This document shows, one piece after another, positions 3,301 to 39,077 of a DNA stretch of 64,000 bases (position 1 is its first letter; each line of letters opens with the position of its first letter). This DNA is from an uncultured Gammaproteobacteria bacterium (GTDB taxonomy: Bacteria > Patescibacteriota > Patescibacteriia > UBA1558 > GWA2-36-10): assembly GCA_964638415.1 (NCBI GenBank), contig CAZWYP010000001.1, positions 53,706 to 117,705 on the forward strand, in the 5' to 3' direction. A model generated the notes under the pieces. It was not told the DNA's origin, did no database searches, and worked only from the letters and a program-made list of their open reading frames with translations. The translations under genes were made by a program, and so were the position numbers.

Positions 3301-4674
3301 ATGGGTAATTTTGACAAAATCTGGCAAAGCGTTCTTGGGGAACTAGAGTTGTTAATAAGCCGGGCTAATTTTACAACCTGGTTTAAAAACACCCTCATTG
3401 TAGAACAAAATGATCAACAGGTGGTGATTGGAGTACCTAATGCCTTTACTAAGGTTTGGTTGGAAAAGAAGTATAACAAACAAATTAAGCAGGCCTTAGA
3501 AAACGTTCTGTCTAAAACTAATCTACAAGTTATCTACAGGGTAATAAACTCGAATAGTGTTGCTAATATTAGCCAAAACATAGAATCTCCTGTTCTTGAA
3601 AAAAAGGCGGTTGTGGATAAAGAAAACAACGAAAAGTTGGCTAATAATAGCAAATTTGGTCTTAATCCCAAATATACATTTAATAGCTTTATTGTGGGGG
3701 CTGGTAATGAGCTGGCCCAGGCGGCTGCCCAGGCGGCTGCTAAAAAGCCCGGGGAGCTTTATAATCCACTATTTATATATGGTGGGGTGGGGTTAGGAAA
3801 AACCCACCTTGTTCAAGCGGTTGGTAATTATATTTTGGCTAAAGATAGCACAAAAAAGGTTTTATATATTAATAGTGAAAAGTTTACCAACGACTTCATT
3901 TTTGCTATAAAAAATGGAAAAACCGACCATTTTAAACAGGTTTATCGAGAGGTTGATGTCCTTTTAATTGATGATATCCAGTTTATTGCTGGAAAAGAGC
4001 AGACTCAAGAGGAGTTTTTTCACACTTTTAACGCCTTACATCAAAACAATAAACAAATTGTTCTCTCTTCAGATCGGCCACCAAAAGCAATTTCAGGGGT
4101 GGAAAGCCGCCTTATTTCCCGTTTTGAGTGGGGAATGATTGCAGACATCTCTTTTCCAGATTTAGAGACCAGAATGGCCATTTTGGAGCTAAAATGCCAA
4201 GAAAAAAACTATTTGTTAGATAAGGAGATAATTGAGTTTATTGCTGAAAACATTCAAGAAAATATTAGGGAGCTAGAAGGGGCCCTTAACCGCCTAATTG
4301 CCTTTCATGAATTAAATAACACTCAACCCAGCATGGAAAGCGTCAAGGCTATTTTGGGTGGTATTTCAACTAATCCGCGGAAAGCTGGTTTAACCACTAA
4401 AAAACTAATAAAAACGATTTTAGACTATTATGATATTTCCGCCGACGATCTTTTAGGATCAAGTAGAAGGAAAGAGTTGGTTGTACCCAGACAAATAACC
4501 ATGTTCTTAATGCGTGAGGAATTAAAAGCCTCCTTCCCTAATATTGGTAATGATTTGGGTGGTCGTGATCACACCACCGCTATGCATGCATGTTTAAAAA
4601 TAGCGCAAGCAATTGAAATTGATGATAAAATAAAAAATGATGTGGCTGTTTTGAGACAAAAGGTTTATGAATAA
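3301..4674 (+). CDS. dnaA: chromosomal replication initiator protein DnaA
   Basis: 457 aa. AAA+ Walker A (GGVGLGKTHL), Walker B (LLIDDIQF) and a C-terminal DnaA-box-binding domain (VVPRQITMFLMREELKASFPNIGNDLGGRDHTTAMHA). Confidence 0.97.
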   Translation: MGNFDKIWQSVLGELELLISRANFTTWFKNTLIVEQNDQQVVIGVPNAFTKVWLEKKYNKQIKQALENVLSKTNLQVIYRVINSNSVANISQNIESPVLEKKAVVDKENNEKLANNSKFGLNPKYTFNSFIVGAGNELAQAAAQAAAKKPGELYNPLFIYGGVGLGKTHLVQAVGNYILAKDSTKKVLYINSEKFTNDFIFAIKNGKTDHFKQVYREVDVLLIDDIQFIAGKEQTQEEFFHTFNALHQNNKQIVLSSDRPPKAISGVESRLISRFEWGMIADISFPDLETRMAILELKCQEKNYLLDKEIIEFIAENIQENIRELEGALNRLIAFHELNNTQPSMESVKAILGGISTNPRKAGLTTKKLIKTILDYYDISADDLLGSSRRKELVVPRQITMFLMREELKASFPNIGNDLGGRDHTTAMHACLKIAQAIEIDDKIKNDVAVLRQKVYE

Positions 4675-4886
4675 CTTGTTAATAAGCTGGTGGGTTGTTG
4701 GTGGTTTTCTAAAAAAACCAAAAACAACAAAAATAAAAGAGCTCTAATTATTAACAGGATATAAAAACAAAACTCCCTGCTTTACCTCCGTTTTACTAAG
4801 CATTTTTGCCTTTTTTCAACTTAACAACATATCAACAGGCCCTACTACTACTGTTTATATAAATAATAAAATCTAATTTTAAGAGT

Positions 4887-5987
4887 ATGAAACTAACCTG
4901 TACGCAAGAAAACTTAAATCAGGGATTAAATATTGTTTCCCATATAGCAAATAAAAACAACAATCTTCCAATCTTAAATAATGTTTTACTAAAAGCAGAT
5001 AAGAATGGACTAACTCTAACCACTACGGACTTGGAAATTGGAATAAAGGCCTTTGTCCGCGGAAAGGTTGAAGAGGAGGGTGAGTTTACGGTGGCCGCCA
5101 AACTATTAAACGATTTTGTTGGACTACTACCCAAAGAAAACATCAACCTCTCCACAAACAACAACACACTATTAATTCAAAGTAGCAACCAACAAACAAG
5201 TATAAAGGGGTTGTTGGCCGAAGACTTCCCCTTAATACCGGAAATTGAAAAAGAAAATGAGCTAAGTATTGATGCTGTTAAGTTTAAACAGGCTCTTAGC
5301 CAAACAGCCTTTGCTGCTTCTCTAGATAGTTCACGAGCAGAGATTAACGCAGTTAACTTTAAGTTTGCTAAAAACGAGTTGGTTTTAGCCTCAACAGACA
5401 GCTATCGGCTAGCAGAAAAAAGGATAAAAATAAACAACAACCAAGAAAAAGAACTAATAATTCCACTAAAAGTAATCCAAGAGCTAGTTAGAGTTTTAAA
5501 TGATCAGGTGGAAAAAACAGTAAAAGTTTGTTTTAACGACAACCAAATAATGTTTTTGTTTGACGGCGTGGAATTAATCTCCCGCGTTGTTGATGGAAAG
5601 TACCCAGACTACCAGCAAATTATCCCAGAAAAGTTTACTAACGCCATTAAAAGTCAAATTAATAAACTTGTTCCAGCAATTAAATCAGCAGCGCTTTTTT
5701 GCAAACCAGGAATTAACGATGTTCGTTTAAAGTTTTCTAATACTAATAAACAAATAATTATTAACGCCGCCTCATCTCAAGCAGGGGAAAGCACAATAAA
5801 GGTTGCTGGAGAAATTGTTGGCGGGGACCTAGAGGTTGTTTTTAACTACCGCTACTTACTGGATGGGTTGAATAATATTACTGGTGATGAAGTGGTTATA
5901 AAAATAAATGACAACAACACCCCCGGCCTACTCCAAGCAAGTAAAGAGGAAGACTACCTTTATTTAATAATGCCAATTCGCCAATAA
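4887..5987 (+). CDS. dnaN: DNA polymerase III beta subunit (sliding clamp)
   Basis: 366 aa. Directly downstream of dnaA, with a three-domain clamp-like sequence (MKLTCTQENLNQGLNIVSHIA...). Confidence 0.93.
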   Translation: MKLTCTQENLNQGLNIVSHIANKNNNLPILNNVLLKADKNGLTLTTTDLEIGIKAFVRGKVEEEGEFTVAAKLLNDFVGLLPKENINLSTNNNTLLIQSSNQQTSIKGLLAEDFPLIPEIEKENELSIDAVKFKQALSQTAFAASLDSSRAEINAVNFKFAKNELVLASTDSYRLAEKRIKINNNQEKELIIPLKVIQELVRVLNDQVEKTVKVCFNDNQIMFLFDGVELISRVVDGKYPDYQQIIPEKFTNAIKSQINKLVPAIKSAALFCKPGINDVRLKFSNTNKQIIINAASSQAGESTIKVAGEIVGGDLEVVFNYRYLLDGLNNITGDEVVIKINDNNTPGLLQASKEEDYLYLIMPIRQ

Positions 5988-8876: not shown

Positions 8877-9545
8877 ATGAATAAAGGAGGAAAAAATAAA
8901 AAAGGATTTACCCTAATAGAACTCTTGGTGGTAATTGCAATAATTGGCACACTATCTTCAGTGGCAGTGATTAATTTAACAGAATCAAAAAATAAAGGTA
9001 GCGCCGCTAAAATGATTAAGGAAATTAAGCAAGTGGAAACTGGTTTGCGGGTGATGTGGAATGAAGAAGGACGCTGGGCCACACAATGCGATATACAAGC
9101 AGAGTACGGTATAAATGGTTTGTTTTGTGAAGGAGGAGAATATCCTTATGGATCAGGAAGTTGTTCTTTGCCAAACGGTTGTAACCACGATCCAGAGCCA
9201 ACTATTGTTTGGTTTATAGACAACACGGAATTTAGTCAATTTTTTCCACCAGAAACCAGACCACTGTTAGCTAGTTATGAATATGATAATGACAATGATA
9301 GCCATGACATAGGAAGCAATGGTTGCATTCTTGGTAGTAATCCAGGAGACCCAGTTGGCAGCTGTAATATTAGGCCTTATCGCGGCGTTAGTTTATATAT
9401 TCAAGGTATAGATTATCAAGAGGTTATTGATCAAACCATAGATGGTGGAGATGGTGGTTGTTGCGGTAAGTTTCTTTATGAACAAAGTGACTTAGATATG
9501 GGACGGGGAATTTATAAACTAGGAAACAACCCCACGGATTTTTAA
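8877..9545 (+). CDS. type IV pilin-like protein (class III signal peptide) with a Cys-rich globular domain
   Basis: Prepilin motif KKGFTLIELLVVIAIIG follows a short basic leader. The C-terminal region has 10 Cys. RBS-like AAAGGAGG precedes the start. Confidence 0.85.
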   Translation: MNKGGKNKKGFTLIELLVVIAIIGTLSSVAVINLTESKNKGSAAKMIKEIKQVETGLRVMWNEEGRWATQCDIQAEYGINGLFCEGGEYPYGSGSCSLPNGCNHDPEPTIVWFIDNTEFSQFFPPETRPLLASYEYDNDNDSHDIGSNGCILGSNPGDPVGSCNIRPYRGVSLYIQGIDYQEVIDQTIDGGDGGCCGKFLYEQSDLDMGRGIYKLGNNPTDF

Positions 9546-9589: not shown

Positions 9590-10438
9590 TTAGGATGTCG
9601 ACACTGATTCAAGTTGTTTCTCAGAAGGGGCGACTTGTTTTTTTATTCTAGGGGGCTTTTTTCCTGCTAACCAATCAAGCAGAGAATATTCTTTAATTAG
9701 AGCAGAAGAAAAAATTGCCCAGAGAAAGAAAAAAACCTCGGAGAGCAGCAGGTAAACAAAGGAAGCGAACAAAGAGCCAGAAAGCAAGAGTAGAAAATTT
9801 ATCACTCCTTGCAGTATTCCAAGGAATAGCCCAGAGACAATTCCTGCCCAGAGATCAACAAAAGCAATTAAAACAAACCAACGCTTCGTTTTGAATGAGG
9901 ACCAGGTTGCGGACAAAACAAAACCAACCAGCCAACCAGCCAATAAATAGCTGTTAACAGGCACTTTATCTAACCAGACTGGCTGATTATTAAACCAGAC
10001 CAACATGGTTATACCTAGAGCAACACCGATGAGTCTAGCACCAACCAACTGATTCCAACGGTCTCCAGTAGAGTCTTTTTTCACCCAGTTTTCTTCCACA
10101 AAGCCATCTTTGATGAAGAAAATTGCTGAATCAGCGATGATAATGCCAGCCAGCAACAGAGTCCACCAAAAAGACAAAGAGAAGGGTAGGGTATAAATAG
10201 ATATGCCAGAAAAACCAACCACCCCACTTAGGCGGGGAAAGTCGGCAAACAGATCGGCAAAACCGTAAAAAAGAGCGAAAAATAAGGCCAAGCAGGAAGA
10301 TTGACGTAACCAGAGACGGAAGCCCGCTCCCATGATTTTTCTCCTAAAATAAAGAGGTGAATAGTACAAAAAGACGACAAAAGAATACTGCTTTTTCTTT
10401 TTTTTGTCAACAAAATAAGGTTTTTTTATTAAAAACAA
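9590..10438 (-). CDS. integral membrane protein, function unknown
   Basis: 282-aa ORF with 7-8 predicted hydrophobic helices. The true start may be the internal Met (MGAGFRLW...). No recognisable catalytic motif. Confidence 0.5.
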   Translation of the reverse strand: MFLIKKPYFVDKKKKKQYSFVVFLYYSPLYFRRKIMGAGFRLWLRQSSCLALFFALFYGFADLFADFPRLSGVVGFSGISIYTLPFSLSFWWTLLLAGIIIADSAIFFIKDGFVEENWVKKDSTGDRWNQLVGARLIGVALGITMLVWFNNQPVWLDKVPVNSYLLAGWLVGFVLSATWSSFKTKRWFVLIAFVDLWAGIVSGLFLGILQGVINFLLLLSGSLFASFVYLLLSEVFFFLWAIFSSALIKEYSLLDWLAGKKPPRIKKQVAPSEKQLESVSTS

Positions 10439-32848: not shown

Positions 32849-33709
32849 ATGTCAAAAGTTAGAAAAGCCATTATTCCGGTAGCAGGACTAGGCACTCGCT
32901 TTTTGCCAGCTACCAAAGCCCAGCCCAAAGAAATGCTGTCGTTAGTGGATAAGCCGATTATCCAGTACATCGTAGAAGAAGCCGTAGCTTCGGGAATTGA
33001 GGAGATTATTTTTGTTACTTCGCAGAATAAGCGGGCAATTGAAGATCATTTTGACCGCAATTTTGAATTAGAATACCGCTTAAGGCAGAAGCATAAGAAT
33101 AAAGTATTGGAAGAGTTGTTAGCAATTTCCGATATGGCCCGCTTTATTTATGTTAGGCAAAAAACTCCCAAAGGATCAGGTCACGCTGTGCTTTGCGCGC
33201 GGGAATTAATTGGCGATGAGCCCTTTGCCTTGTTCTACGGAGATGATGTGGTGGATAGCAAAGTCCCAGCCATGAAACAGCTGATGAAAGTCTATGATAA
33301 ATACAATGACGTGGTTATTGGTGTTACTAAGGTAAATAAGAAAGATACTAGCAAATATGGTATTGTTGATCCGATTATGCTGGACGAGAAAACAGCGCAA
33401 ATCAAGAGGATAGTAGAAAAGCCAGATCCAGCCAAAGCTCCGTCCAATTTAGCTGTGACCGGAAGATATATTTTGCCGCCAGCTATTTTTGACTTATTAG
33501 CGGAAGCTAAGCCCGCTAAAGACGGTGAGATTTATATGACGGAAGCGATTGATAAGTATATCAAACAGCAAGCCGGTTATGCTTGCGCTTATTCCGGCAC
33601 CTACTATGACTGTGGCAATAAGCTGGGATTCACCAAAGCAGTAATTAACTTTGCCCTCAAACATCCGGATATTAGGCAGCCACTAAAAAAGTATTTAAAA
33701 GAATTATAG
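32849..33709 (+). CDS. galU: UTP--glucose-1-phosphate uridylyltransferase
   Basis: N-terminal KAIIPVAGLGTRFLPATKAQPKEML, and VEKP later in the sequence. 286 aa. Confidence 0.9.
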   Translation: MSKVRKAIIPVAGLGTRFLPATKAQPKEMLSLVDKPIIQYIVEEAVASGIEEIIFVTSQNKRAIEDHFDRNFELEYRLRQKHKNKVLEELLAISDMARFIYVRQKTPKGSGHAVLCARELIGDEPFALFYGDDVVDSKVPAMKQLMKVYDKYNDVVIGVTKVNKKDTSKYGIVDPIMLDEKTAQIKRIVEKPDPAKAPSNLAVTGRYILPPAIFDLLAEAKPAKDGEIYMTEAIDKYIKQQAGYACAYSGTYYDCGNKLGFTKAVINFALKHPDIRQPLKKYLKEL

Positions 33710-33711
33710 CT

Positions 33712-35076
33712 ATGAAAAGATTGAGAATTATCTCTTTATTAATCCTAGCCATTTTCTTGGTTACCACCGGTTTGGGTTGTAAAAACCCTATTTTAAAAGG
33801 GGAGGCTTTTAAACCGATTACCTTAACTTATTGGGGGGTATGGGATACTCCAGAGCAATTAGATAGCCTGATCAAAGCTTACCAAAGCAGCCACCCAACC
33901 ATTAAGGTCCAATACCGGAATTTCCGTTATGATGAATATGAGGCTAAGTTGTCGGAGGCTTTATGGGAAGACAGATTGCCTGATGTTTTTGCTATTCCCG
34001 CTGCTTGGCTAAGAGAATACCAAGACCGTCTAGAACCGATGCCCAAGAGCGTGCAGATACCGGTTAAGCAAGTGCAAGGCACGGTTAAAAAAGAGGAAAT
34101 TACTTCTCTGCAGACCATTAACAGCCTGTCGGTAAATGATATAAAGCGGCAGTACGTACAAGTTGTTTATGATAATGTAGTATTGGATAACAAGATTTAC
34201 GGCTTACCATATACAATGGATACTTTAGTGACCTTCTACAATCTTGATCTTTTAACCAGGGCGGGTATTGCCGAGCCCATTGTTGATTTTCATGATTTAG
34301 ACGCGCAGACTCCAAAGCTATCTAAAATTGGCACAGATAACAAGATTTATCAGTCAGCCGTAGCTCTAGGAGCTGCCGATAATATTCCCCGTTATTTTGA
34401 CATACTTTCTAGTATTATGATGGAAAACGGCGTGGAAATGAAAGGCCCAAGCTTTAGTCCTACTAGAGAGAAAGAGTCTGCAGATAGGTTTTTGAGTGCG
34501 CTAAATTTTTATTTAGCTTTTTCTGATCAAACCAAACAAGCTTTTTCCTGGACTCCAGACCTGCCCAATGCTTTTGAACAATTTGCTGAAGGAAAATTAG
34601 CTTACTTTTTCGGCTATAGTTACCATGCAGATGAATTACGCAAGCGAGGCGTTGCTTTTGAATGGGATATTGCTAATTTCCCGCAGGCCCGAGGATCGTC
34701 CGGCACCAAATACTACGCTAATTATTGGGTAAATGTCGTACCAAAGAAAGCTAAAAATAAGGACGCGGCCTGGAATTTTGTGCAAAGCACCGCCGGAGAA
34801 TCTTTAGTCAAGGATTATTTGCAGGAGAATAATAAACCAACCGCTTTGCGAAGCTTAATAGATGATCAATTACAGGATGAGGACATTAGGGTGTTTGCCT
34901 CTCAAGTTTTAACAGCAGATAATTGGTATCAGGGTTATGATATTAACGCTGCTGAACAGTATTTGGCTAATTTGATCAATGGTTTGCAGTCGGGAGAATT
35001 AGTTTTGGATAAGGAAGGGACAGTGATTGGCTTATTTATTAACCAAGTGAATCAAACTTATAAAAAACCAGAATGA
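33712..35076 (+). CDS. extracellular solute-binding-protein-like lipoprotein (SBP family 1-like)
   Basis: Signal peptide ending in LGC (lipobox-like). TYWGVWD and overall SBP_bac_1-like composition. No adjacent permease or ATPase genes. The stop overlaps the start of the next gene (ATGA). Confidence 0.6.
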   Translation: MKRLRIISLLILAIFLVTTGLGCKNPILKGEAFKPITLTYWGVWDTPEQLDSLIKAYQSSHPTIKVQYRNFRYDEYEAKLSEALWEDRLPDVFAIPAAWLREYQDRLEPMPKSVQIPVKQVQGTVKKEEITSLQTINSLSVNDIKRQYVQVVYDNVVLDNKIYGLPYTMDTLVTFYNLDLLTRAGIAEPIVDFHDLDAQTPKLSKIGTDNKIYQSAVALGAADNIPRYFDILSSIMMENGVEMKGPSFSPTREKESADRFLSALNFYLAFSDQTKQAFSWTPDLPNAFEQFAEGKLAYFFGYSYHADELRKRGVAFEWDIANFPQARGSSGTKYYANYWVNVVPKKAKNKDAAWNFVQSTAGESLVKDYLQENNKPTALRSLIDDQLQDEDIRVFASQVLTADNWYQGYDINAAEQYLANLINGLQSGELVLDKEGTVIGLFINQVNQTYKKPE

Positions 35077-36149
35077 AAAAAATAAACTGGTTTATTATTT
35101 CCCTTATATTTTTTTCGGCACCAGTAGTAGCTAGGGCAGGAATATTGGATGCTTTAGGTTGTATTCCTACCGGCACTTGCGGTTTGGCTGATGTTGAGCT
35201 CGGTTTTCAATTATTAACTAACTGGTTATTGTCAGCTATTGGCGCCTTGGGCTTATTATATTTTATCTGGGGGGCTGGCCAGTGGATCACTTCTTACGGC
35301 CGAGCAGAAAAGGTTTCTCATGGCCGAGAAATCATGATGGGATCGGTAACAGCTATAGTAATCGCTTTGGTTAGTTATGTATTAATTCAGTTTTTTGTTA
35401 ATGATGTTTTATTGGGAGGAAATAATAATGAATTAAGGATTTCTCTGGAGTGCGTAAATGCCGCTCAAGGAAAAGTTTGTAATGAGCCATTAAGAAACTA
35501 CGTCTGTAGCGGCACGTTTACTGAGGATGATAAGAAGACTTACAGCAATCTTTGTGTTACCCGTTGCCAGTTGCAGAATATTACCGGCGTACCCGGTGAT
35601 TGGAGTTGCTTAGTCAAGGGTAGTTTTATTGATAATGATCGGGTAGAAAAAATGGAAAGCGCTTGCCCGACAGAAGACTATATTTGTGTTAACACTCAGA
35701 CAGTCTCTAAACAAACTTTTGTGCCGCCTAGTGGCGGAGTTGGCGGCACAGGCTCTTGTGGCGGATTGGATGTTAGAGGCATTAATACCGCTCAGTGCAA
35801 TGATGCTTCTGCCGGCTTAACGGCTTTGTTAAGATGTTTAAGCTCTTTGCCTAATTTTCAACAGCAAGTAGTGATTACGAGTATTTCTGATGACCGTCAT
35901 ATTGGCAATTTGCAGGACTGCCAAGGAGATAGATATAATAGCAGCAGCTGTGTTCATACGCGCAACTCCTGTCATTATGGCGGAAGAGATTTGCGGCCAT
36001 ATTCTTGTGCAGTAGATTTGGCTTTAAGAGGCGGCGGTATTAGTTTTAGTGATATAGAGGCTATGGCTGACGGTTGCGGCGCTCAATATACCCTTAATGA
36101 AGGAGATCATGTTCATGCCAGTGTTTCCGGATGTAATTGTGATAATTAA
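35073..36149 (+). CDS. TrbC/VirB2-like T4SS-pilin-fold protein fused to a Cys-rich C-terminal domain ending in a putative LAS/M15-like zinc peptidase module
   Basis: Signal peptide, then two hydrophobic helices flanking WITSYG and a basic loop (shared with the four downstream paralogs). This is followed by about 240 aa with more than 20 Cys. The C-terminus (SCHYGG...SCAVDL...ADGCGAQY...GDHVHASV) resembles Peptidase_M15 / DUF882 zinc ligand motifs. Confidence 0.6.
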   Translation: MKKINWFIISLIFFSAPVVARAGILDALGCIPTGTCGLADVELGFQLLTNWLLSAIGALGLLYFIWGAGQWITSYGRAEKVSHGREIMMGSVTAIVIALVSYVLIQFFVNDVLLGGNNNELRISLECVNAAQGKVCNEPLRNYVCSGTFTEDDKKTYSNLCVTRCQLQNITGVPGDWSCLVKGSFIDNDRVEKMESACPTEDYICVNTQTVSKQTFVPPSGGVGGTGSCGGLDVRGINTAQCNDASAGLTALLRCLSSLPNFQQQVVITSISDDRHIGNLQDCQGDRYNSSSCVHTRNSCHYGGRDLRPYSCAVDLALRGGGISFSDIEAMADGCGAQYTLNEGDHVHASVSGCNCDN

Positions 36150-36157
36150 TCATATTA

Positions 36158-37111
36158 ATGAATAAAAGAAAATTCATTCTTGGTATTTTATTAATTAGCT
36201 GGCCACTATCTGTTCAAGCTGGTATTTTGGATAATTTATCTTGTGTCAGCACTGGAGCCTGCGGTTTATCTGATGTAGAATCCGGCTTTCAGCTGCTTAC
36301 TAACTGGTTATTAGGTGGGATTGGCGCTTTAGGCTTATTATATTTTATCTGGGGAGCTGGTCAGTGGATTACTTCGTATGGCCAACCTAACAAAATAGAA
36401 AAGGGCCGGGAAATCATGATGGGATCGGTGATTGCCATTGTTATTGCTTTGATTAGTTTTATTCTGGTGCAATTTTTTGTTAATGATGTATTATTAGGCG
36501 GGCAAAATAGCGACTTTAGAGTAAGTAGTGAATGTGTCGGGGCTAATCAGGGCAAAATTTGCAATGCTCCTTTGAGAAACTATGTCTGCAGCGGACAGTT
36601 TACTGAACCAGCTAAGCAAAATGCCAGCAATTTATGTATTACTGAATGTGAGTTAAAAAGTTTAATCGGTGAAGATAAATGGATTTGCGTTGATCGTAAA
36701 TTTGCCGAAGAGCTTGAGGAGGCATTTGAAGGCGCTAGTACTGAAGATGGTTGTCCGTCCGAGGAGCAGGTTTGTTTGAATTTATCTAGTGTCCCGGAGA
36801 ATGTTTTAAATTCTGGCGCTAATGGTGCCAATGCCGGTGAAGATTATCCTGGTTGTTGTCAGCTGGGATTTCAGAACTGTGAACCAAGTTCCGCTGAAGA
36901 TTGTCGCGCTCAATCTGGACAATTCTTTTCTCGCTCCTGCGGCCAAGTTAATTTTTGCAATTCTGGTTATGTACAGCAGAGCCATGGTTGTTGTGTAAGC
37001 GAATCCTCTCCAATTTCCTGTCAGGATGTTTCCCAAGGAGATGTTTGCGAGGAGAATGGTAACACTTTAATACCTTACCAGAATTGTAGTGAGCTTGATT
37101 ATTGCAATTAA
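36158..37111 (+). CDS. TrbC/VirB2-like T4SS-pilin-fold protein fused to a distinct Cys-rich C-terminal domain
   Basis: The N-terminal ~125 aa are about 75% identical to the preceding gene (GALGLLYFIWGAGQWITSYG...REIMMGSV...QFFVNDVLLGG). The C-terminal ~190 aa have more than 25 Cys. The first ~45 aa of this domain are shared with the paralog; the rest diverges. Confidence 0.6.
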   Translation: MNKRKFILGILLISWPLSVQAGILDNLSCVSTGACGLSDVESGFQLLTNWLLGGIGALGLLYFIWGAGQWITSYGQPNKIEKGREIMMGSVIAIVIALISFILVQFFVNDVLLGGQNSDFRVSSECVGANQGKICNAPLRNYVCSGQFTEPAKQNASNLCITECELKSLIGEDKWICVDRKFAEELEEAFEGASTEDGCPSEEQVCLNLSSVPENVLNSGANGANAGEDYPGCCQLGFQNCEPSSAEDCRAQSGQFFSRSCGQVNFCNSGYVQQSHGCCVSESSPISCQDVSQGDVCEENGNTLIPYQNCSELDYCN

Positions 37112-37136: not shown

Positions 37137-37466
37137 ATGAGTAAGCAAAAAAACAAGTTATTATTTGCCACTATTACCGGATTATTCTTACCCTTAGCCA
37201 GCCAGGCCGCAGTCAGTCTCAGTAATCCTTTGCAAGCAGATAGCTTGCCGGAGCTAATTAATAACGTCATTAAAGGATTGTTGGGAGTGGTGGGAGCTAT
37301 TTCTTTATTGATGATAGTAATTGGCGGAATTTTATGGATGACTTCTGGTGGTAACTCGGACCGCATTAAGCGCGGTAAAGACACCTTGGTTTGGGCGGTT
37401 ATTGGCTTAGTGGTAGTTTTCTTGAGTTATGCCATTATTAATTTTGTTTTCCAGTCATTAGGTTAA
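37137..37466 (+). CDS. TrbC/VirB2-like T4SS pilin-like small protein
   Basis: 109 aa. Signal peptide (LPLASQAA), helix 1, WMTSGGN motif, basic loop (SDRIKRGKD), helix 2. Start set at the internal ATG 37137; the track ORF begins at 37089. Confidence 0.6.
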   Translation: MSKQKNKLLFATITGLFLPLASQAAVSLSNPLQADSLPELINNVIKGLLGVVGAISLLMIVIGGILWMTSGGNSDRIKRGKDTLVWAVIGLVVVFLSYAIINFVFQSLG

Positions 37467-37545: not shown

Positions 37546-37893
37546 ATGAAAAAAATTATCGCAGGTCTATTGTTATTTATGCCCATGATGGCTTCCGCAC
37601 AAGATGTTTTTGGTATTAATGATTTAAATAACAGTAATTTAGGAACCGCTGATCTTAAAACCACGATTAATCAGATTTTGTCCGTGATTTTGGGATTTTT
37701 AGGAATCATTGCTACCCTGATTATTTTGTTAGGTGGATTCAAATGGATGACTTCACAAGGTAATAGTGATAAGGTGGATGAAGCTAAGAAATTAATTGGC
37801 GCCGGCATCGTCGGTTTAGTGATCATCTTAGCCGCTTACGCCATTGTCCGTTTCGTCTTGACAGAAGTTTACGACGCTACCCAAGAAGCATAA
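37546..37893 (+). CDS. TrbC/VirB2-like T4SS pilin-like small protein
   Basis: 115 aa. Strong RBS AAAGGGGGTGA upstream. Signal peptide (MMASAQD), helix 1, KWMTSQGNSDKVDEAKK loop, helix 2. Confidence 0.65.
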   Translation: MKKIIAGLLLFMPMMASAQDVFGINDLNNSNLGTADLKTTINQILSVILGFLGIIATLIILLGGFKWMTSQGNSDKVDEAKKLIGAGIVGLVIILAAYAIVRFVLTEVYDATQEA

Positions 37894-37954: not shown

Positions 37955-37976
37955 AGGCGTGGATTATAAACTACAT

Positions 37977-38360
37977 ATGCTAAAAAAAATATTTGCTTTT
38001 CTTCTTTTATTGCCTTCAACAGCCAATGCTTTGACTGCTGCCGACACTGGTTTGGATGACGCTGCTTCCGGCACCGGTCTTAATATGGATTTAACTTTAA
38101 GTGGCTGGGTTAGTTTGATTATCCGAGGATTTTTAGGACTATTAGCCACCATCTTTATTATCATGATTATCGTTGGCGGTTTTCAATGGATGACTTCCGG
38201 CGGTAATGAGAAAAAGATAGAATCAGCCAAAGGTATGATTAGCAATGCGGTAATTGGTGTGGTAATTGTTGTAATTTCCTATGCTATTACTATTTTTGTC
38301 TTCGAAGTCTTATTGGATACTGACGGTAGTGATGGAGGAGACGGTTTCGGCGGCGGTTAA
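37977..38360 (+). CDS. TrbC/VirB2-like T4SS pilin-like small protein with a Gly/Asp-rich C-terminal tail
   Basis: Signal peptide (LLLPSTANA), helix 1, QWMTSGGNEKKIESAKG loop, helix 2, then the tail DTDGSDGGDGFGGG. An alternative GTG start lies at 37959. Confidence 0.6.
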   Translation: MLKKIFAFLLLLPSTANALTAADTGLDDAASGTGLNMDLTLSGWVSLIIRGFLGLLATIFIIMIIVGGFQWMTSGGNEKKIESAKGMISNAVIGVVIVVISYAITIFVFEVLLDTDGSDGGDGFGGG

Positions 38361-38376: not shown

Positions 38377-38409
38377 AAAACCCGTTAAGTAAAACTTAAC
38401 GGGTTTTTT
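38377..38409. terminator. bidirectional rho-independent terminator
   Basis: AAAA-CCCGTTAAG-taaaa-CTTAACGGG-TTTTTT between convergent genes. Likely ends the long plus-strand operon. Confidence 0.8.
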
Positions 38410-38426: not shown

Positions 38427-39077
38427 CTATCTGGTGGCGTAAAGGTGAGCCACCCAGTCTATTCGGCGGCCCTGCCAATCTTGATCTTTCTTTTCTCGAT
38501 CAATGTACAGAGTGAAGCGGTAGGTTTTTTTAAACCCATCTTCCCTCTGGTAGAGAAAATTAATTTGGCCAGGAGCCACAGCAGTAATTTCACTGTATTG
38601 ACTGGGATACAGTAAGCCATACTGGTTGCCGCGGTCATCCCAAGCATAGACCGGCCAAGGAGTGGAATTAACCACAATTCCCATTTGCAAGACAATGTCT
38701 CGCAAAAAGTTGTCGTCCAGTATAACGGATACCGTGTCTGAAAGTCTTCCTGGCTTTTCCACGCCGATCTTGTACTCATCGTCTTGCCAGCCGTTTTCTT
38801 CCCACCACTTGACGACAAAGGTGATGAGGTCGCGGCGGTCGGGATAAAAAAGCTCGGTTTCTCCCGGGCGAATCAGAATCATGTCGGTTGTGCCGGCATT
38901 CGTCTTGTGCCCAACAAAGACCTCATGTTCAGCGCTGTCGGGATTGGTGAAGGCGATAATTGCCTTTTGAGCATAGGGTTGTTCATGCTGCAATGATTTC
39001 TGGTAGCGATGAGCGCACCCACAATAGCTTGCAGAAGCTAACAGTAGGCCAAAAATGGCCAAATTTTGCCACTTCAT
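38427..39077 (-). CDS. secreted hypothetical protein
   Basis: 216 aa with an N-terminal signal peptide (MKWQNLAIFGLLLASASY). No recognisable domain. Local composition appears more GC-rich than neighbouring genes; this is a visual impression only. Confidence 0.5.
   Translation of the reverse strand: MKWQNLAIFGLLLASASYCGCAHRYQKSLQHEQPYAQKAIIAFTNPDSAEHEVFVGHKTNAGTTDMILIRPGETELFYPDRRDLITFVVKWWEENGWQDDEYKIGVEKPGRLSDTVSVILDDNFLRDIVLQMGIVVNSTPWPVYAWDDRGNQYGLLYPSQYSEITAVAPGQINFLYQREDGFKKTYRFTLYIDREKKDQDWQGRRIDWVAHLYATR

Follow-up and report, generated by a model that had tools for sequence, protein, structure and literature searches.

The gene at positions 35073–36149 (forward strand) of a 64,000-nucleotide stretch of contig CAZWYP010000001.1 from an ultra-small Patescibacteria (CPR) bacterium, referred to below as the window, is likely to encode a modular pilin of the VirB2/TrbC type, the pilin type of type IV secretion systems (T4SSs), that carries a zinc peptidase outside the cytoplasm, where it would act on the peptides of peptidoglycan beside a T4SS-like machine. 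The open reading frame (ORF) is complete, with an ATG start and 358 codons before the stop, as had been given in an earlier note on this DNA, and its product (hereafter the target) comprises a signal peptide, a VirB2-like pilin hairpin, a cysteine-rich module and a Hedgehog/DD-peptidase-like domain. An identical protein is present as cluster representative P0002 in a library of 15 billion proteins. The fold, the chemistry and the general role, that of a T4SS-associated wall hydrolase, are of kinds already known; what is new is the family, for which no model exists, and the VirB2-type pilin that bears an enzyme.

The C-terminal domain (residues 223–358, 10 cysteines; 35739–36146, forward strand) is predicted to be an LAS-fold zinc peptidase of Hedgehog/DD-peptidase kind. 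The earlier note had seen a peptidase-like module of ~90 residues at the C-terminus; the location holds, and the length is corrected to ~135 residues (~224–358). An exhaustive phmmer/HMMER search with residues 224–358 against 1.84 billion cluster representatives revealed a family of 252 representatives at E ≤ 1e-3, 39 of them at E ≤ 1e-10, in which the domain is almost always C-terminal in proteins of 250–450 amino acids, while a word-indexed homologue search with the single target sequence returned one 100-residue fragment only. The named sources of the family are Falkowbacteria, Komeilibacteria, Moranbacteria, Minisyncoccia and 'Patescibacteria group', and every annotation reads 'hypothetical'. 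A search of GTDB representative genomes with an eight-sequence alignment located 42 loci, nearly all of them in Patescibacteria and none at 100%. Three loci that combine the family domain with a T4SS cluster (L006, L032 and L040) come from metagenome-assembled genomes titled Bdellovibrionales or Gammaproteobacteria, to which the contigs were probably mis-binned.

Conservation was assessed in an alignment of 70 diverse members (protein position = alignment position + 220), and revealed that C255, S270, C293, H295, C300, H301, G303, S311, D315, C335, H346, H348 and C354 are invariant, and that conservation reaches at least 90% at Q241, S246, L249, I271, S272, D273, C283, S299, Y302, G304, A313, E343 and S350. 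The sequence blocks quoted in the earlier note are all present (ITSISDD, 268–274; SCH, 299–301; AVD, 313–315; EGDHVHASV, 343–351), and the family-wide invariance rules out a chance match to a motif.

An AlphaFold2 (AF2) model of the domain, built from the family alignment (pLDDT 94.4, pTM 0.89), adopts the LAS superfold, the three-dimensional fold common to the N-domain of Sonic Hedgehog (ShhN) and the Zn DD-peptidase of Streptomyces albus. With this model, Foldseek, whose sensitivity was much lower here, returned ShhN as the top and sole confident match (probability 0.99), the first non-LAS structure scored 4.7, and no M23 or DUF882 structure was found among the significant structural matches. 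When the family profile was compared with every sequence in the PDB, only the N-domains of Sonic, Desert and Indian Hedgehog were returned, in an alignment that covers the C-terminal ~60 residues only and places SCHYGG...AVD on SLHYEGRAVD of Shh and E-G-N-H-I-H-V-S-V on E-S-K-A-H-I-H-C-S-V. The register was unchanged when the family alignment was compared by hhalign with a human ShhN sequence entered by hand (89% probability, E 2e-6).

By the profile alignment, H295, H301, D315, E343, H346 and H348 of the target correspond to H135, H141, D148, E177, H181 and H183 of mouse Shh, and each of the six is either invariant or conserved in at least 90% of the 70 members. The predicted first zinc ligand, H301, lies in the block S299-C-H301-Y-G-G304 (35967–35984, forward strand), aligned to SLHYEG of Shh; the predicted second ligand is the invariant D315 in the block A313-V-D315 (36009–36017, forward strand); and the predicted third ligand, H348, is found in the conserved block E343-G-D-H346-V-H348-A-S350 (36099–36122, forward strand), aligned to ESKAHIHCS of Shh, together with E343 as predicted general base (at least 90% conserved) and H346. 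The invariant H295 (35955–35957, forward strand), equivalent to H134 of human and H135 of mouse Shh, is the predicted second-shell or catalytic histidine. The motif of the Hedgehog/DD-peptidase group is H-x6-D and H-x-H with E177 as the general base (PMC6027127), and alignment recovers this zinc-ligand motif (Roelink motif) in the target with a deviating spacing. The earlier note had tentatively read the module as an LAS/M15-type peptidase with His, Asp and His as ligands; the LAS fold of the AF2 model, the Hedgehog register and the six conserved site residues support the LAS/M15-type reading. We infer that the domain binds zinc and is catalytic.

Within the LAS fold, the results support the Hedgehog/DD-peptidase (M15A-like) kind as the nearest to the domain. 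DUF882/MepK, VanX, VanY/LdcB, the phage L-Ala-D-Glu peptidases, MepA (M74) and M23 yielded structural scores clearly below those of Hedgehog and M15A, and no sequence-profile match to the target domain was obtained for DUF882/MepK, other M15 subfamilies, M74 or M23. An assignment to DUF882/MepK, a candidate named in the earlier note, or to M23 was ruled out, there being neither a profile nor a structural preference for it, and the Hedgehog/DD-peptidase kind is closer by both measures. The resemblance is distant, with ~18% identity in structural alignments with the 'Hh/DD-peptidase' group, which comprises ShhN, bacHh and MEROPS M15A with the Zn DD-carboxypeptidase of S. albus (1LBU). In contrast to Hedgehog, bacHh and M15A proteins, the family has six conserved cysteines, lacks an HH_signal or M15 Pfam match, is confined to Patescibacteria and is fused to a T4SS pilin. 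In the columns aligned with the Ca2+-binding acidic cluster of Shh (WDEDG region), the family varies and has no conserved acidic residues, and the target has neither this cluster nor the >50% identity to ShhN over ~145 residues that characterize Hedgehog proper and bacHh.

The N-terminal part of the target is best read as a pilin specifically of the T4SS VirB2/TrbC type, which narrows the pilin-like N-terminus proposed in the earlier note. Residues 1–21 (MKKINWFIISLIFFSAPVVARA, followed by G; 35073–35135, forward strand) form a signal peptide, recognized by a hydrophobic segment (residues 4–27) and ARA, after which cleavage is predicted by the AxA rule. The pilin module (residues 22–113; 35136–35411, forward strand), delimited from PF18895, jackhmmer, AF2 and hydropathy, comprises according to its hydropathy profile a CxxxxxC motif, a hydrophobic helix (~44–73), a basic loop (YGRAEKVSHGRE) and a second hydrophobic helix (~86–113). 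A jackhmmer search seeded with a neighboring short pilin reached this region at E 6.8e-20, and the AF2 model of the mature module is a two-helix hairpin (H17–52 and H57–92, pLDDT 80.9). The signal peptide, the two hydrophobic helices and the short basic loop are shared with VirB2/TrbC pilins (PF04956, PF18895) and with the VirB2 arrays of Patescibacteria, and the target is likewise a member of a tandem array of divergent pilins such as those described from 383 assemblies (PMC12102498). In contrast to canonical VirB2 pilins, which measure ~70–130 residues and carry no additional domain, the target possesses ~245 more C-terminal residues including the predicted enzyme.

Between the pilin and the peptidase lies a cysteine-rich module (residues 114–222, 8 cysteines; 35412–35738, forward strand) for which no Pfam match was found and which, among all fetched sequences, gave a phmmer match only in the tandem paralogue encoded at 36158–37111 (E 3.9e-27). 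The 20 cysteines of the target are distributed 2 + 8 + 10 over the three extra-membrane modules, with none in the hydrophobic helices; their exclusion from the helices and the even number per module fit an oxidized, extracytoplasmic location, and we infer a topology in which the C-terminal part is extracytoplasmic. The six conserved cysteines of the peptidase domain probably form three disulfides. The possibility that the domain is a zinc finger or Cys/His cluster of the cytoplasm was considered and is ruled out by the signal peptide, the even cysteine counts per extracellular module and the LAS fold.

In this large family of Patescibacteria, proteins are as a rule built as fusions of pilin and peptidase: a pilin module was found in 117 of the 129 family representatives in which 110 or more residues precede the domain, and in 37 of the 46 fetched loci. 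The architecture, which the earlier note had thought unusual, is not a one-off. In several relatives other domains join the peptidase. P0030 and P0087 combine T4SS_pilin, SLT and the peptidase domain; P0150 (2988 residues) combines SLT, the peptidase domain and a NosD/beta-helix region; P0061 and P0127 have a sub-threshold match to a 3D domain (E 4e-4) before the peptidase domain, P0127 also with a pilin domain; and the protein encoded at 9461–11281 of L041 has, in order, a pilin, the LAS domain, fn3 and a weak Peptidase_M64-like segment. At nine loci (L005, L008, L012, L013, L015, L021, L022, L030 and L036) the gene is adjacent to that of a second long VirB2-type pilin. The C-termini (~200 residues) of these nine adjacent pilins form one family, with weak matches to the Pfam 'lysozyme-like' model SLT_3 (2.6e-5 and 7e-4) and weak PDB-profile matches to C-type lysozyme in the region of an invariant Glu that lies within 'ES...GLFQIN'; a further neighbor, at 10385–11527 of L039, is a pilin-SLT protein (SLT E 1.3e-9). 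The fusions and the adjacent pairs together place glycosidase and peptidase heads on one pilin or on neighboring pilins.

The relatives also connect the family with T4SS genes. In nine of the ~29 loci with enough flank, and additionally in L026, a PrgI/TraC-like/VirB4 (and TrbL_3) cluster lies 2.4–6.5 kb upstream on the same strand, and L043 (3069–9441) and L046 (2464–8826) harbor a compact T4SS cluster of TrbL_3/VirB6-like, PrgI, TraC-like and VirB4-like ATPase genes. In L046 a DsbA/thioredoxin gene is located inside the cluster, immediately ahead of the genes for the pilins, in keeping with pilin heads rich in disulfides. At L018, L038 and L042 the gene for the LAS-bearing pilin heads an array of short pilins, as in the window.

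A monoderm-type T4SS has been described across Patescibacteria by Quinonero-Coronel et al. (2025; PMC12102498), with hypervariable VirB2-like pilin arrays of 2–11 divergent genes, often near dnaA; pilins with extra domains are not mentioned there. According to the same study, VirB1 is missing from most VirB2-bearing Patescibacteria genomes, and other hydrolases may substitute for it. Southlakia epibionticum cannot do without its T4SS locus and PF18895 pilin array when it grows as an epibiont (Wang et al. 2023; PMC10633639), and the supplements of that paper list SEML1_0007, directly downstream of the VirB4 homologue and growth-defective or essential in transposon sequencing, with an ECOD assignment of residues 951–1105 to 'Hedgehog/DD-peptidase' (template 6n7g_C, e6n7gC1; 0.993), and SEML1_0006 with two lysozyme-like domains and a cysteine peptidase. 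A Hedgehog/DD-peptidase fold in a Patescibacteria T4SS locus is thus already on record, in a supplement only. The C-terminal domain of SEML1_0007 (strain ML1) can be likened to that of the target by template assignment, since chain C of 6n7g was also rank 1 in the Foldseek search with the target model, and relatives L006, L026 and L039 are similarly placed directly downstream of virB4. SEML1_0007 differs from the target in its length (1113 versus 358 residues), in having no PF18895 match listed, where the target is pilin-fused, and in its position, the target gene not adjoining virB4; it resembles a pilin-less protein of 1238 residues encoded in L006 (6698–10414) just downstream of VirB4, with the family domain at its C-terminus. 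In the literature searched, no report was found of the pilin-peptidase fusion, its prevalence or the pilin-lysozyme partner.

The VirB1-like hydrolases of Gram-positive T4SSs, TraG of pIP501, PrgK of pCF10 and CwlT of ICEBs1, offer a functional analogy, although not one of membership: they likewise join an N-terminal membrane anchor to one or more extracytoplasmic wall hydrolases in a monoderm-type T4SS (PMC12102498), and their combination of glycosidase and peptidase is mirrored here by the pilin-SLT-LAS fusions and adjacent gene pairs. Their peptidase is of the CHAP/NlpC-P60 or LytM (M23) kind and their anchor a plain transmembrane helix, whereas the target family has an LAS/M15A peptidase and the target itself a VirB2-type pilin as anchor and no glycosidase domain.

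On this basis we propose that the target would be exported by the Sec pathway and, after removal of the signal peptide, would insert its two-helix hairpin into the cytoplasmic membrane or into the pilus or stalk of a T4SS, leaving the C-terminus outside. There, the disulfide-rich spacer module would present the Hedgehog/DD-peptidase (M15A-like) LAS-fold domain, in which Zn2+ would be held by H301, D315 and H348, water activated by E343, and the site completed by H295 and H346. The enzyme would cut the stem peptides or the cross-links of the peptidoglycan that adjoins the T4SS-like machine, and would in this way provide the peptidase part of an activity that opens the wall as VirB1 does; the glycosidase part, in other genomes, would come from the lysozyme/SLT-pilin paralogues or be fused in cis. 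Peptidoglycan is the presumed substrate, and the wall cut may be the cell's own or that of a host. The earlier note had suggested either a device for cell-wall remodeling for filament passage or a contact-dependent lytic effector; the SLT fusions, the lysozyme-pilin neighbors and the VirB4 linkage support this pair of ideas, of which either may apply.

Several observations weigh against this proposal. The target gave no match at E ≤ 10 to the Pfam models for M15, HH_signal, VanY, M74 or M23; single-sequence searches with the C-terminal 135 residues produced no peptidase match in Pfam (E ≤ 10), NCBIfam or the PDB, the last returning only nanobody noise at E ~0.8; and the 70 members, scanned singly against Pfam (E ≤ 1), matched no consistent family, one of them matching Peptidase_M15_3 at 0.047. 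The profile comparison that the earlier note had proposed fails with the curated Pfam models for M15, DUF882 and M23 and yields the Hedgehog N-domains (0.06 for the PDB profile, in addition to the hhalign result), and the lack of a curated-model match marks a new family inside the LAS superfold and outside existing Pfam families. The Foldseek support is itself weak at E 0.01, the profile-to-PDB E-values for the Hedgehog N-domains are marginal (0.06–0.5), and H301 and D315 are 13 residues apart, owing to a 7-residue loop insertion, compared with the canonical spacing of 6 (H-x6-D) in Hedgehog. The match of the pilin module (residues 48–108) to PF18895 is sub-threshold, with an E-value of 0.0025 and 18.3 bits against a cutoff of 26.6 bits. 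Neither VirB4, VirB6 or PrgI genes nor a lysozyme/SLT-pilin partner were found in the window, and Pfam detected no lytic transglycosylase or lysozyme domain in the target or its paralogue. An extension of ~250 residues per subunit is hard to fit into the tightly packed VirB2 pilus, suggesting that the target is perhaps merely a membrane anchor or a minor subunit. Finally, a Hedgehog fold can serve chiefly as a binding module.

The alternatives differ in what the enzyme would act on, or in whether it is an enzyme at all. We regard it as unlikely that the protein is a host-directed lytic or feeding device, residing in or at the tip of a T4SS pilus where its peptidase would digest host peptidoglycan at the contact site and admit the epibiont, despite a number of observations that agree with such a role. 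Epibiotic growth depends on the T4SS and its pilin array, and these have neither a relaxase nor a coupling protein (PMC10633639, PMC12102498), which suggests a non-conjugative, host-directed function; the pilin arrays are hypervariable, as expected of surfaces that interact with a host (PMC12102498); the target and its paralogue keep the pilin and spacer and exchange the C-terminal 'head'; and giant surface proteins such as P0150, with its beta-helix region, also bear the domain. However, there is no evidence for polymerization of such long modular pilins, no immunity gene was recognized nearby, and the combination of anchor, SLT and peptidase fits the self-acting VirB1-like hydrolases of Gram-positive T4SSs equally well. 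A broader version of this idea, in which Patescibacteria would build modular T4SS pilins with swappable heads (zinc peptidase, lysozyme/SLT or cysteine-rich) and the filament itself, with such pilins along it or at its tip, would drill through the host wall, is offered tentatively and with some doubt.

It is very unlikely that the domain is a non-catalytic binding module whose LAS metal cleft would hold a D-Ala-D-Ala stem, a glycan or a host protein, making the target an adhesin head on a pilin. Its closest structural and sequence relatives, the Hedgehog N-domains, are indeed chiefly receptor binders (PMC6027127), and the head of the paralogue appears to be a non-enzymatic cysteine-rich module. 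Lineages that lose catalysis, such as Drosophila Hh, also lose the catalytic residues (PMC6027127), whereas E343 is conserved and H295 and H346 are invariant across 70 diverged members. This family-wide conservation of the catalytic Glu and of both second-shell His makes a purely binding role unlikely, and the SLT/lysozyme fusions and neighbors likewise argue for an enzyme. Hardly probable at all is a peptidase that processes proteins rather than peptidoglycan, cleaving pilin precursors, itself or other surface components of the T4SS. C-terminal processing is required by the VirB2/TrbC pilins of other systems, which counts in favor of such a role, as does the position of the target gene at the head of a pilin array. 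A 'cannibalistic' peptidase activity intrinsic to ShhN, leading to self-degradation, has also been reported (PMC6027127).

The target heads an array of four further pilins in the window. The first is a tandem paralogue of 317 residues (36158–37111, forward strand; blastp E 1e-89, PF18895 E 2e-4) that shares the signal, pilin and cysteine-rich spacer with the target at 52% identity over ~250 residues and ends, without a peptidase domain, in an unrelated cysteine-rich module of ~100 residues (CCQLGFQNC...SELDYCN), for which no Pfam or NCBIfam match was found. The pair gives the impression of 'head swapping', with the pilin stalk kept in common. Three short, divergent VirB2/TrbC-type pilins follow on the same strand (37089/~37137–37466, 37546–37893 and 37959–38360), with PF18895 scores of 53.9, 41.3 and 31.6 bits, all over the cutoff, and the first two also pass PF04956 (TrbC/VirB2). 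Since the GTG start of the first short pilin overlaps the paralogue, its true start is probably the ATG near 37137. A perfect 14-bp hairpin with A/T runs on both sides (38377–38407), located between convergent gene ends, is the sole notable element of a consensus scan for promoters and terminators that was otherwise not above shuffled expectation, and resembles a terminator that would end the pilin array and be shared with the convergent gene. The latter (38427–39077, reverse strand) is an ORF of 216 residues for which Pfam returned no match and whose product bears a lipoprotein-like signal (…LLASASYCGC…).

Directly upstream of the target, a galU-like nucleotidyltransferase and an extracellular solute-binding protein are encoded at 32849–35076 (forward strand). 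The stop codon of the solute-binding protein gene and the start of the target gene overlap by 4 nt (ATGA), an arrangement suggesting that a sugar-binding protein and the pilin array are co-transcribed and translationally coupled. The rest of the window is housekeeping in character (dnaA/dnaN, ruvABC, rpoB, ftsK, recA, murein ligases and FemAB) and includes a class A penicillin-binding protein, an LD-carboxypeptidase, glycogen genes, Wzy/flippase genes and five tRNA genes, at a G+C content of ~40%. dnaA/dnaN lie at 3301–5987 (forward strand), ~30 kb upstream, so that the array is origin-proximal, and this housekeeping, origin-proximal neighborhood rules out an origin from a mobile element or conjugative plasmid. 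L043 and the window have a neighborhood of Wzy_C ×2/Polysacc_synt, YidC, RnpA, dnaA and dnaN in common. A protein of 222 residues with a prokaryotic N-terminal methylation motif (type IV pilin or pseudopilin) is encoded at 8877–9545 (forward strand) and belongs to a filament system distinct from the VirB2-type array.

Type IV pili are known to include modular pilins onto which functional domains have been grafted, and no description of T4SS pilins so equipped was found in the literature searched; the present family extends the idea of modular pilins from the former to the latter. The family is also a sequence neighbor of the Hedgehog N-domain that can be detected in the PDB, stands as a deep branch of the Hedgehog/DD-peptidase fold within bacteria and would add a large and ancient bacterial clade to the debate on the origin of Hedgehog. 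The domain could enter Pfam and the models used for T4SS detection, and specific residues are named here for mutation. Of the secretion machinery of Patescibacteria, only the T4SS with its VirB2-like pilin array has been shown to be indispensable to growth as an epibiont, and pilins that bear a Hedgehog/DD-peptidase domain with catalytic residues intact by sequence, often paired or fused with lysozyme-like domains, constitute a testable candidate for the breaching of the wall. If true, drilling by the pilus would be a previously undescribed mechanism of epibiotic attachment and feeding, and would explain the apparent absence of VirB1 from most such genomes.

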